A stretch of 64,000 nt of DNA. Origin: a phage. Position 1 is the stretch's first letter. Each line of letters begins with the position of its first letter. Shown here piece by piece: positions 20,639-23,833 of this stretch. The notes beneath the pieces are model-generated. The model saw nothing but the letters and a program-made list of their open reading frames with translations, searched no databases and was not told where the DNA came from. Location: the sequence record NC_102531.1; one strand, given 5' to 3'. A program made the position numbers and the translations under genes.

Positions 20639-20715
20639 TGGTCTCCACGGAGTGATTCGAACACTCGACCTCCTGATCCCAAATCAGGCGCTCTACCAAG
20701 CTGAGCTACGCGGAG
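20639..20715 (-). tRNA. tRNA-Pro (anticodon UGG)
   Basis: Hand-folded cloverleaf: C1-G72 acceptor, D-arm GCTC/GAGC, anticodon loop TTTGGGA, T-loop TTCGAAT, encoded CCA. Confidence 0.8.
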
Positions 20716-20726
20716 TATTTACTATT

Positions 20727-20801
20727 TGGTGGCCCTGGGTGGAATTGAACCACCGTCTGGCGATTATGAGTCGCTTGCTTGAACCTTCCAGCTACAGGGC
20801 C
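20727..20801 (-). tRNA. tRNA-Met or tRNA-Ile2 (anticodon CAU)
   Basis: Hand-folded: acceptor GGCCCTG/CAGGGCC, anticodon loop CTCATAA, T-arm GGTGG-TTCAATT-CCACC, encoded CCA. Confidence 0.7.
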
Positions 20802-20802
20802 T

Positions 20803-20878
20803 TGGTGCTGATGGCAGGACTTGAACCTACAACCTATTGATTACAAATCAATTGCACTACCGATTGTGCTACATCAGC
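20803..20878 (-). tRNA. tRNA-Thr (anticodon UGU)
   Basis: Hand-folded: acceptor GCTGATG/CATCAGC, D-arm GCAC/GTGC, anticodon loop TTTGTAA, T-loop TTCAAGT, encoded CCA. Confidence 0.8.
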
Positions 20879-20883
20879 AAAAA

Positions 20884-20982
20884 GGTGCTAGGTGATGGAA
20901 TCGAACCACCTATGTATTCAACGACTACCTCGTCTATTTTCAGGATTAAAAATCCTCGCCCTTGCCAAAGGGCTTACCTAGC
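20884..20982 (-). tRNA. atypical tRNA-like gene (99 nt; anticodon loop UUUUUAA, putative UUU; roughly 30-nt variable region)
   Basis: Perfect 7-bp acceptor GCTAGGT/ACCTAGC, D-arm GCCC/GGGC, T-arm GGTGG-TTCGATT-CCATC, anticodon hairpin AGGA-TTTTTAA-TCCT; the region between anticodon and T-arm is far longer than in canonical type I or II tRNAs. Confidence 0.4.
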
Positions 20983-21080
20983 TCAGTATGTTGACCATGT
21001 TGCTAGTCGGCGATGACGACTGTAACATTTGATAATCCGGTTCTGCTTCCGGCTTTCGCTTAATTACAAGGTCAACAATG

Positions 21081-21171
21081 TGGCGGAGAGTAATGGAATC
21101 GAACCATCATCGAGTCATACCCAACGGGACGGTTTTCAAGACCGCTTGAGCACCATTGCTCCCTACCCTCC
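21081..21171 (-). tRNA. tRNA-Ser (anticodon UGA)
   Basis: Hand-folded type II tRNA: anticodon loop CTTGAAA, long variable arm, T-arm GATGG-TTCGATT-CCATT, encoded CCA. Confidence 0.75.
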
Positions 21172-21285
21172 TTTATAAATTATACTGATAATGACACTGA
21201 TTTTCGAGCAGTTAGTGACTAGTATAAACGACGATAAATATCAATGCCATTATCTGTATTATTTATGCATCTAAAAATATAAATT

Positions 21286-21372
21286 TGGTGGGGAGTGGTG
21301 GAGTCGAACCACCCGAGTCGCAATGACAATAGATTTACAGTCTACACCGCTACCTCTACGGGATAACTCCCC
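21286..21372 (-). tRNA. tRNA-Tyr (anticodon GUA)
   Basis: Hand-folded type II tRNA: acceptor GGGGAGT/ACTCCCC, anticodon stem-loop GTAGA-CTGTAAA-TCTAT, long variable arm, T-arm GGTGG-TTCGACT-CCACC, CCA. Confidence 0.7.
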
Positions 21373-21376
21373 AATT

Positions 21377-21451
21377 TGGCACCCCGTACTGGACTCGAAC
21401 CAGTGTCAACGGCTTAGAAGGCCGCTGCTTTATCCACTAAGCTAACAGGGC
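21377..21451 (-). tRNA. tRNA-Arg (anticodon UCU)
   Basis: Hand-folded: D-arm GCTT-AGTGGATA-AAGC, anticodon stem-loop GCGGC-CTTCTAA-GCCGT, T-arm CTGG-TTCGAGT-CCAG, CCA; two G-U pairs in acceptor stem. Confidence 0.7.
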
Positions 21452-21547: not shown

Positions 21548-21886
21548 TTAGCTATTGCCAACAGGCTGTATTTCTGTAGTAAATGGCATAAAAGGTGCTG
21601 GTTTTTCAGCCTCTTCCACTACCACCTCTTCCTCTTCACCAAACATCTCATCATATTCTTCCTGCATTCGGTCTGCCTTATCAAGAACATACTCTGCAAT
21701 GCTTTGACGAATATTTTGTTTGGTTTTCGGGTCCAACATCAGCTCTCTTAAAACTTTGTGAGCTTCTGGAACCATCGCTATAAAAGATTCCTTCATATCA
21801 AGGATGTTCTTCTCTAGCTGAATGGCGTTGGACTCCTCTTTCAGAGGTCTGCCTCTACGGCGACGCTTTTTAGTTGTATCCGCCAT
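21548..21886 (-). CDS. small basic DNA-binding-like protein (AT-hook-like RRRRGRP; possible small terminase)
   Basis: ATG at 21886 with GGAGG RBS; MADTTKKRRRRGRPLKEE... then acidic C-terminus; assignment speculative. Confidence 0.4.
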   Translation of the reverse strand: MADTTKKRRRRGRPLKEESNAIQLEKNILDMKESFIAMVPEAHKVLRELMLDPKTKQNIRQSIAEYVLDKADRMQEEYDEMFGEEEEVVVEEAEKPAPFMPFTTEIQPVGNS

Positions 21887-21914
21887 GTTTCCTCCATTAT
21901 CACGTGATAGGTGG

Positions 21915-21943
21915 ATTTTATCATAGCAAATACTGATTGTCAA
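21915..21943 (-). promoter_or_regulatory. sigma70-like promoter
   Basis: Minus strand TTGACA - 17 nt - TAAAAT just upstream of the 21886 start; palindrome ATCACGTGAT between -10 and RBS. Confidence 0.55.
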
Positions 21944-22232
21944 GTTCGCCGCAGGGTGGTATTCCCTGCGACTTGTCCAGCGTCCTGGACCAGCAAGACC
22001 CAACAAGTGGGTTACCAGAGGCCTATTACCCGCGCTTCGGCTCGACCTTGTTACAGGTTGGCTGGGGTCACATCGTCATGTGCTGGCTGCCCCTACCATT
22101 TTAAGTGTGGTGCACTATCAAGCCCTCTAAGGGGAACTCAGTCTTCTCTGAACCCTGTTTCAAAGCATCCAGAGATAAAGCCATCAAATTCATCTTTAAA
22201 TTGGATATTCATCATGATACACGAAAACAACC

Positions 22233-22475
22233 TCATTGTAAAGCACAAATAAATAAAACATACTTAATTTGTTTGTTATCAGGCTCAGGGTAGAAGTAGA
22301 AGATCTTGCTATCACCGATCTGAACACCACCATCCCAACAACATAGCCCATAACCTGTATTCATACAAGCTAAGTCGTTGGCAAAATCTATTGCATCATC
22401 CAGTGCACGAAATTCACCTTCATCTTCTAAATAATCCTCATTCATGGAACGAAAAACGAGCTTAACCTTAAACAT
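22233..22475 (-). CDS. hypothetical protein
   Basis: 80-aa ORF with its own promoter. Confidence 0.45.
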   Translation of the reverse strand: MFKVKLVFRSMNEDYLEDEGEFRALDDAIDFANDLACMNTGYGLCCWDGGVQIGDSKIFYFYPEPDNKQIKYVLFICALQ

Positions 22476-23330: not shown

Positions 23331-23833
23331 AGCTGCCTCCTCTTCAAGTTATAGAAAAACTCACTGTATCGCTTTGTAACGAGCTTTTCTATCAAACTGG
23401 TGCGATTGCATTACCTGGTATAGTTTATATAGCTGTGGAGCGATTTAGGGGCCTTCTTGTCAGTTTCCACACATAAACTTCATCCAAGCTCGCGCGGGAG
23501 ACTCTCAACCGACTCCTTACGGCGCTGGCAAGCTTTCGTCGGTGGTCCACATCAGTGCTAGGCCTTTGGCCTGCGCTATCGCTTCGCTCCCACACATGTT
23601 AACAGACCTGCATGTATGAACTTCTGTTATTGTGTGCACCAAGGAGGCCCGGCATCTCGCCCCTCGTAGGCGAGTGCCAATGAAGGGCCGACACTGCCCA
23701 TAGTAAGTAATAAATTTAAAACATGGTACTTAGGATCTAGTATATTCTACATAAGTTAAGTATATGTACTTAGTACCATAAGTACTAGATCTTTTATTTT
23801 TTATTATTTAGTTATTTTAGTTATATTCTTTAT

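Follow-up and report, generated by a model that had tools for sequence, protein, structure and literature searches.

The 64,000-nucleotide stretch of phage DNA analyzed here (NC_102531.1; hereafter the window) belongs to an rV5-like Vequintavirus and contains, at positions 21890-22232, a GC-rich block that comparison among phages shows to encode a minus-strand member of a conserved phage RNA family of ~80-115 nucleotides (nt). All genes neighboring the block lie on the minus strand. An 80-amino acid (aa) gene (22475..22233) is located directly upstream, a 112-aa gene of family phrog_3330 (21886..21548) directly downstream, and seven tRNA genes called by ARAGORN (21451..20639) follow beyond the latter; no function is known for the flanking genes. 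Over the 1.1 kb surrounding the block, identity to 118 rV5-like Vequintavirus genomes is 95-100%; in the records of these genomes the block carries either no annotation or inconsistent small 'hypothetical protein' calls on either strand. In this region, eighteen GenBank 'Campylobacter phage' records (MG0656xx) share 99% identity with rV5-like phages of E. coli, and these are likely mislabeled or contaminant genomes.

An initial annotation, made from the sequence alone, had described the block as GC-rich, rich in hairpins, bracketed by promoters and free of credible open reading frames (ORFs), and had proposed as its product a structured noncoding RNA or else a long leader with a regulatory role. 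The unusual composition is borne out: 21890-22232 has 47.8% GC and its core (21945-22140) 56.6%, a value reached by 0.13% of 196-nt windows, compared with 43.2% for the whole window. The proposal of a structured RNA is likewise upheld, in that comparison places 22093..22014 (minus strand) in a widely conserved RNA family whose helices covary and whose fold includes a pseudoknot. However, the conserved RNA occupies only the central 80-130 nt, and the 5' end of the block may hold a small ORF.

The core motif (22014..22093, minus strand) is matched by our covariance model at 22093..22006 with 53.8 bits, a score that includes the contribution of the window sequence to the model seed. The structure begins with a short helix, P1, formed in the window by GGGG (22093-22090) and CCCC (22067-22064) and consisting of 4-5 base pairs (bp) across the family. 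P1 encloses a YAR linker, a segment of 4-7 nt and a variable hairpin (H), which reads CACAU-GACG-AUGUG in the window (22082-22069). A pseudoknot (PK1) arises from pairing of the 4-7 nt segment with the tail that follows P2 on its 3' side, here GCCAG (22087-22083) with CUGGU (22018-22014). P1 is followed by a three-way junction composed of P2 (3-5 bp), Pa (ACCU/AGGU closed by a GURRNA hexaloop) and P3 (GC/GC with a free loop). In the window these are P2, GCC (22062-22060) with GGC (22023-22021); Pa, ACCU-GUAACA-AGGU (22058-22045); and P3, GC-CGAAGC-GC (22041-22032), joined by the junction strands CGA (22044-22042) and GGGUAA (22031-22026), all on the minus strand. The window thus has the P1, H and PK1 pairings of the family (GGGG/CCCC, CACAU/AUGUG and GCCAG/CUGGU). 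The Pa hairpin and the junction strands, CNA and GGUAA in the family, are almost invariant, and all copies share the nearly unchanging core ACCUGUAAYAAGGUCNAGC-(3-6 nt)-GCGGUAA. The corresponding window sequence (22058..22026), ACCUGUAACAAGGUCGAGCCGAAGCGCGGGUAA, agrees with this core apart from one extra G.

Sensitive blastn searches with the block identified all rV5-like phages and, in addition, 458 T4-like genomes, where the match is 44 nt long (window 22022-22065) with 86-89% identity. In T4 and Bp7 the short denV-vs.8 spacer contains this match, with co-directional transcription. The sequence 5' of the core differs between the two phages, but the arrangement of a hairpin within a helix is the same. 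Among the collected loci (given L numbers below) the covariance model finds 97 copies, 77 of them distinct, with scores of 44-103 bits except for one weak, duplicated match from a metagenome-assembled genome (MAG) or metagenome (23.6 bits); the window has a single copy (22093..22006). Carriers include the Tevenvirinae, with three structural subtypes and in some cases two tandem copies; the rV5-like phages; an uncultivated sister lineage (L115/L117/L119/L052/L141) whose flanking genes are ~75% identical to those of rV5; Klebsiella siphophages of ~46 kb such as KP591P1 and BUCT541; and about ten unrelated viral contigs (L028, L053, L102, L103, L106, L111, L114, L116 and L158). An exact-pattern scan of IMG/VR gave 24 true loci in its first round, and two looser scans added further true loci mixed with chance matches. 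A pattern scan of metagenomes gave 34 loci, and one of bacterial and archaeal genomes (185,579 species, one genome each) only three, all in MAGs. A blastn search of 5,426 complete E. coli genomes gave no match to the block, which is thus not host-derived, and on this distribution we regard the motif as phage-specific.

The case for a structured RNA is comparative. Taken alone, thermodynamics would not support it, because the single-sequence folding energy is unremarkable (z = -1.55 for the 271-nt region 22200..21930, with a second value of -1.54, and z = -0.35 for the motif); the minimum free energy (MFE) fold mixes PK1 with an alternative ACC/GGU pairing. The covariance model was built from a 40-sequence MAFFT alignment, and helices were segmented by alignment to the model, as an automatic helix finder proved too noisy. 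Pairing in the model alignment extends to 93.3% of cells, and 11 of 15 pairs change on both sides; the covariation score is 0.457 against 0.148 for shuffles, none of 500 shuffles reaching the observed score, and at most 59% of cells are paired when partners are slid. Because the sequences are related and the alignment is fitted to the structure, these figures are not probabilities. In the MAFFT-only alignment 89% of cells are paired, versus 25-60% with slid partners, and all five P1 pairs change on both sides (AU, GC, UA and CG). The pseudoknot is supported, in another MAFFT alignment comprising 35 T4-like and two other copies, by pairs 11-109 (CG20/AU6/UA6/GC3, none unpaired) and 12-108 (GC21/CG9/AU4). 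Moreover, in all subfamilies the linker is fitted better by the RNA's own 3' tail than by foreign tails (mean 11.3 versus 8.3; 0 of 2000 permutations). RNAalifold independently recovers P1 and Pa. The frequent G-U pairs would be A-C on the opposite strand, which identifies the RNA as the minus-strand transcript.

Compensation is seen within Vequintavirinae alone, where every variable helix is compensated between the window and the L115/L117/L052 lineage. P1 changes from GGGG/CCCC to GGAAC/GUUCC, H from CACAU/AUGUG to CUACG/CGUAG around the same GACG loop, and PK1 from GCCAG/CUGGU to GAGG/CCUC, UGAGG/CCUCA or GUGAGGG/CCCUUAC. Among close rV5-like relatives, substitutions and indels affect the P3 loop, the fifth position of the Pa loop, the 3' strand of P2 with the linker region, and the first of the 3' hairpins; no variation is seen in P1, H, the core or the 5' strand of PK1. 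Pa shows one A-U to G-C swap (L059b) and P3 a GUC/GAC variant. The tandem copies of some T4-like phages (L059, 5079-5303; L067, 8968-9193) include a more divergent second copy, with core GGCCAGUCCGCGACGGUAA, and this second copy is the only source of covariation in Pa and P3. A further pseudoknot between the Pa loop (GUAA) and the 3' linker (UUAC) was suggested by L034 (GUGA/UCAC), L058 and L053. We rejected it as a family feature, since there is no room for it in the rV5-like phages, the Klebsiella phages and several other lineages, and loop and linker variants are uncorrelated overall; it may at most be specific to T4-like phages.

The T4 reference (L121, NC_000866) reads the element differently. 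There vs.8 starts at an ATG inside hairpin H, so that the motif (L121 1843-1939; record coordinates about 64842-64938) is annotated as the N-terminus of Vs.8. Among 41 distinct T4-like loci with a vs.8-like ORF, the vs.8 frame is open through the motif in only two, both of them T4 records, and the remaining 39 have stops or a different frame. The true start of vs.8 is likely the downstream ATG (MRTFLTGPYLSL...). In the window, a TGA precedes the frame that runs across the core, and this frame lacks a start codon. A coding role for the motif, whether as an N-terminal extension of Vs.8 or as a small protein, was therefore rejected, the frame not being kept and 39 of the 41 T4-like loci being closed. 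The long plus-strand ORFs of the block (21911-22252 and 21937-22104) are antisense to the conserved RNA and would be expected to be broken by the indels of close relatives.

These observations also bear on a broader explanation at the level of DNA, in which the conserved segment would be a homing-endonuclease target spread by gene conversion, or the block an ordinary spacer holding promoters, hairpins and a small ORF or N-terminal extension. The vs.8 annotation in T4 would fit such an explanation, as would the homing-endonuclease genes found 188-290 nt downstream of the motif in L028 and L103 and the codon-like variation seen in the 5' part of the block. However, the compensatory changes in P1, H, P2 and PK1, together with G-U pairs that can form on one strand only, require selection on RNA, the reading frames are interrupted or shifted in 39 of the 41 T4-like loci, and indels in the P3 loop and J3 linker ignore codons. 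We consider this explanation very improbable, and for the motif itself it is largely excluded. The two homing-endonuclease contigs are unrelated to each other. The L028 gene (2195-2731) is HNH_3-like but below the Pfam cutoff, that of L103 (~290 nt downstream) is of NUMOD4 type, and both are free-standing; the L028 motif lies inside an ORF-free stretch of ~1 kb. Such neighbors fit a conserved gene shared among co-infecting phages.

With Rfam 15 (4227 models), only tRNAs were found at gathering level in the window and the motif had no match. A scan of 451 nt at E<=10 returned two chance-level matches, both outside the motif, and five homologous loci gave no match at E<=1. ARAGORN calls no tRNA or tmRNA in 21890-22232, nor does the Rfam tRNA model match there. 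By-eye resemblances to the twister (CCCAAGC loop) and hammerhead (CUGA) ribozymes were discarded, as key positions are variable or mis-spaced. The core sequence was not found in the literature searched, and publications on T4, on structured phage RNAs and on anti-defense RNAs yielded nothing specific; a preprint on a UG27 noncoding RNA array proved unrelated to the motif. A catalogue of about 10,000 candidate structured viral RNAs has been published (PMC10690425). It lists objects of a similar kind, namely orphan phage RNAs supported by covariation, and the text of that paper does not mention the motif. Given that neither Rfam nor the literature searched provides a match, we rate the motif as a new class of RNA carried by model phages.

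One known fold with a related topology is that of the hepatitis delta virus (HDV)-like ribozymes. The helix order read from our alignments, P1-PK1-H-H'-P1'-[domain]-PK1', is the nested double-pseudoknot order of these ribozymes, the few strictly conserved nucleotides are located in junctions, and small ribozymes are common in settings such as those of the motif, in phages and next to tRNAs. A self-cleaving or self-processing ribozyme of a new class could release itself or its neighbors from polycistronic tRNA transcripts. However, the strand equivalent to J4/2 lacks the catalytic C in several lineages (it is U in L033-type copies and UAU in L019), P1 has 4-5 bp rather than about 7 bp, and conservation is highest in the appended three-way junction, a domain that HDV-like ribozymes can do without. 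Even at E<=10, no ribozyme model of Rfam, including those for HDV-like ribozymes, matches the motif. A ribozyme is a very improbable explanation, only slightly less so than one at the DNA level.

The sequences flanking the motif in the window contain several further elements. Both promoter-like elements reported by the initial annotation are present where it had placed them, on the minus strand. The upstream sigma-70-like site (22242..22214; TTTACA-17-TATCAT, 10/12 match) is directed into the block and is kept among rV5-like phages, with a single -10 change in L146. The L117-type loci have instead a TTGACA-17-TATACT promoter that is not homologous to it and sits ~50 nt further downstream. The second site (21943..21915; TTGACA-17-TAAAAT, 11/12 match) is a near-consensus extended -10 promoter with the TG present; it precedes the gene at 21886..21548 and the tRNA cluster (21451..20639) and is conserved in L117-type loci. 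Overall, eight sigma-70-like sites were found in the 1.3-kb region, compared with 2.9 expected from shuffles.

The claim that the block lacks a credible ORF is mostly correct, the exception being a candidate minus-strand ORF of 25 codons (MMNIQFKDEFDGFISGCFETGFRED; 22215..22138) in the AT-richer 5' part, whose stop codon abuts the conserved 5' module described below. It is annotated in Mangalyan and MiataMamis. Among rV5-like phages, all four substitutions in codons 1-22 are synonymous and in third positions, and changes in the last three codons are non-synonymous. This 5' flank is the only part of the block with codon-like variation, the pattern named by the initial annotation as evidence of a small protein, and the motif has none. 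The L117 counterpart has only eight codons, MKDEFDGF (KDEFDGF being common to both), with a strong Shine-Dalgarno sequence. The predicted transcription start near 22207 lies downstream of the ATGs of the ORF. The stretch 22215..22138 may encode a small protein.

Between this ORF and the motif lies a 5' accessory module (GUUCCCCUUAGAGGGCUUGAUAGUGCACCACAC; 22137..22105, minus strand) consisting of a hairpin, CCCU-UAG-AGGG, followed by CUUGAU. It is conserved in Vequintavirinae, where CCCUUAGAGGG-CUUGAU sits 24-26 nt upstream of the motif, and it is nearly identical in the ~75%-identical L115/L117 lineage, starting a few nucleotides after the promoter. A second module is found directly 3' of the motif in L115-type loci and 42 nt downstream in the unrelated L114, whereas the window has one occurrence only. 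These positions suggest a boundary or processing signal. The 9-mer GAGUUCCCC (22139..22131, minus strand), within the accessory hairpin, is identical to the opening 9 nt of the E. coli type I-E CRISPR repeat, and we considered whether the module could be an RNA anti-CRISPR acting as a solitary repeat mimic. However, its stem is much shorter, at 3-4 bp, and L119, L141 and L052, members of the sister lineage, do not retain the 9-mer, so the resemblance is probably due to chance.

Downstream of the motif, three hairpins are predicted on the minus strand. Hairpin a, ACCCA-CUUGU-UGGGU (22012..21998), is mostly deleted (10 nt) in the rV5-like L151 and is thus dispensable and lineage-specific. Hairpin b is GUCCAG-GACG-CUGGAC (21990..21975), with the L117-type analogue GCUGG-AGACGGA-CCAGC, and hairpin c is CGCAGGG-AAUACCA-CCCUGCG (21970..21950). 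The last is the hairpin that the initial annotation had given as its example (GCAGGG-tggtatt-CCCTGC, 21951-21969), and it has 7 bp when the flanking C/G pair is counted; it is one of several in the block, as that annotation had stated. Since hairpin c is not followed by a U-tract it is not a canonical intrinsic terminator. Hairpins a and b lack a U-tract as well, and a scan of 21890-22232 found no intrinsic terminator.

Outside T4-like phages, the majority of copies are found within or next to a tRNA cluster of the same strand, as in L111, L053, L102, L114, L033, L035, L064, L074 and the L115-type and rV5-type loci. The window motif is ~560 nt upstream of the tRNA-Arg gene at 21451, both on the minus strand. 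T4-like phages, with the motif in the denV-vs.8 spacer, are the exception. Several copies have the appearance of discrete units. The motif sequences of L111, L053, L103 and L116 are followed by what reads as an intrinsic terminator, L115-type copies have a TTGACA-17-TATACT promoter directly upstream, and in Klebsiella phages an 8-bp stem (GUUGUGAC/GUCACAAC) brackets the motif unit inside an array of stem-bracketed units. These arrays, found in Klebsiella siphophage-like contigs (L033, L035, L041, L064, L074, L105, L133, L139 and L154), adjoin tRNA genes and consist of long conserved stems, ACAACAGGUAAGAGCAYU ... AGUGCUCUUUCCGUUGUG, around variable inserts of ~50-60 nt, one unit being the motif; they look like a processing-stem system for multiple small RNAs. 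The genes downstream of the motif are unrelated across lineages and comprise vs.8 (phrog_1488), phrog_3330, a 629-aa protein without a Pfam match, homing endonucleases and tRNAs.

We tentatively favor, at somewhat less than even probability, a processed, stable RNA that acts in trans by binding a conserved partner. This reading draws on the discrete-unit contexts, the tRNA neighborhood, the lack of a common regulated gene, and a junction that is nearly invariant across unrelated enterobacterial phages. Transcription would begin at the promoter-like site at 22242..22214 or arrive by read-through from upstream, and the RNA would stand at the head of a unit continuing into the gene at 21886..21548 and the tRNA cluster. 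It would then be trimmed to a discrete, stable and roughly tRNA-sized molecule, whose invariant junction would act in trans by binding a conserved macromolecule of either the enterobacterial host or the phage's tRNA and translation toolkit. Such an RNA, accompanying phage tRNA genes, would serve as a protein binder or a decoy.

Several points weigh against this reading, or against parts of the fold on which it relies. The qualities 'stable' and 'trans-acting' derive from genomic context. In the window no terminator follows the motif and a strong promoter lies immediately 3', so that the RNA could be the 5' leader of the downstream operon. In T4-like phages the motif is within an operon and, in most genomes, directly upstream of vs.8, which fits a role in cis. 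With respect to the fold, Pa and P3 are nearly invariant and thus weakly tested by covariation, and a long-range ACC/GGU pairing in their place is possible. In addition, the covariance-model alignment was fitted to the proposed structure, and the phylogenetic relatedness of the sequences means that the shuffle statistics overstate their independence.

The main rival is a leader acting in cis by modifying RNA polymerase, as a put-like antiterminator or anti-Rho element that secures read-through of terminators and of structured, untranslated tRNA transcripts. The put sites of phage HK022 also give rise to phage RNAs of ~70-100 nt that follow a promoter and precede terminators or structured genes, and L111, L053 and L103, in which a terminator and genes follow within 13-25 nt, have the layout of put sites. 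The motif is always co-directional with downstream genes and tRNAs. It heads the tRNA operon, with a promoter upstream, in rV5 and L117-type phages and lies upstream of a tRNA sub-cluster in L033-type copies, and the near identity of the core among unrelated enterobacterial phages is in keeping with a host target that all of them share, for example RNA polymerase. Like put RNAs, the motif would be expected to bind a host protein common to all hosts. However, put RNAs consist of two simple stem-loops without a pseudoknot whereas the motif is pseudoknotted, and the two are likened here by description only. The position of the motif relative to tRNAs is also inconsistent (it is downstream of them in L111, L053, L102 and L035), the consensus promoter directly downstream in the window would make read-through unnecessary, and processing-type stems and flanking hairpins suggest excision. 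We consider a cis-acting leader unlikely, though it is the strongest of the alternatives to a trans-acting RNA.

A second explanation in cis is a riboswitch-like aptamer for a small molecule that would control vs.8 in T4-like phages and terminator read-through elsewhere. The compact pseudoknotted fold with invariant junction nucleotides is typical of aptamers, and in T4-like phages the motif travels with vs.8 whatever the upstream gene. There, ~25-45 nt downstream of the motif and just upstream of vs.8 (e.g., L004, about 1455-1475), a hairpin follows that reads GCCA-NGGAA-UGGC and then CC(C). Read by eye, this hairpin carries GGA in its loop and is compensated in L093 (GGCA/UGCC); it may serve as a translational operator or CsrA-type site. 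As read from the L111 and L053 sequences, a G-run in the 3' strand of P2 is complementary to the 5' strand of the terminator that follows. In contrast, no gene or function is common to the downstream regions across lineages, so the motif is not consistently placed before functionally related genes, and L033-type copies lie within tRNA arrays with no ORF downstream. Furthermore, a promoter separates the motif from the next gene in the window and in L116, and no Rfam riboswitch family matches. A riboswitch is therefore improbable, more so than a polymerase-modifying leader. Vs.8 itself belongs to phrog_1488 and weakly resembles the terminase large subunit (phrog_2). As neither the window nor the non-T4 loci have a homologue of it, Vs.8 was rejected as a protein partner of the RNA.

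Returning to a stable RNA acting in trans, the closest parallels in description are two small stable RNAs of T4. Species 1 (rnaC) and species 2 (rnaD) are, like the motif, phage-encoded, tRNA-sized and associated with a tRNA cluster, and to our knowledge their function is still unknown. We rejected a relationship, since the covariance model matches T4 at the denV-vs.8 spacer only; moreover, rnaC has a tRNA-like T-arm that the motif lacks. A second parallel is provided by phage tRNAs that evade tRNA-cleaving defenses, such as the T5 tRNA-Tyr against retron-Eco7, with further examples for PARIS and Septu (PMC11555353, PMC13096335). The genomic neighborhood of these anti-defense tRNAs is the same as that of the motif. 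The sequence CUGUAA in the Pa loop region is identical to positions 32-37 of the tRNA-Tyr anticodon loop. However, the stem register does not mimic an anticodon arm, and neither ARAGORN nor the Rfam tRNA model calls the motif. As a more speculative proposal, to which we assign a low probability, the RNA could be an effector of counter-defense or host takeover. It might be a decoy whose junction and CUGUAA loop titrate a host tRNA-directed enzyme or an immune nuclease or sensor, or else represent a new class of ribozyme or polymerase-modifying RNA common to T4-like, rV5-like and other lytic enterobacterial phages.

Two other minus-strand features of the window deserve mention. At 23420-23700 lies a second GC-rich, inconsistently annotated block, in which GC reaches 0.58, the maximum of the window. 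Its conservation extends only to the 118 rV5-like genomes, Rfam gives no match, the MFE z is -2.34, and a TATACT-like -10 element lies upstream near 23745; a 56-aa ORF (23425-23595) is called in some records only. This block is possibly another noncoding RNA. Within the tRNA cluster, ARAGORN reports a 99-nt tRNA-like gene with a 4-base anticodon (atcc) at 20884-20982, which scores 35.5 bits with the Rfam tRNA model. It is annotated as tRNA-Lys in one record and omitted in others, and may be a frameshift-suppressor-like or intron-containing tRNA.

T4 is a heavily studied phage, and its reference reads the element as the N-terminus of Vs.8. Comparative data reveal instead a pseudoknotted RNA common to unrelated phage families. 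That a 35-nt core has stayed almost unchanged in Tevenvirinae, Vequintavirinae, Klebsiella siphophages and uncultivated phages implies strong shared constraint, most likely imposed by a conserved host partner. As phage tRNA clusters are now recognized as anti-defense loci, an RNA that accompanies them without being a tRNA is a direct candidate for a new role of RNA in host takeover or counter-defense. At a minimum, the motif constitutes a new RNA family, and its recognition amends the gene calls of hundreds of phage genomes.

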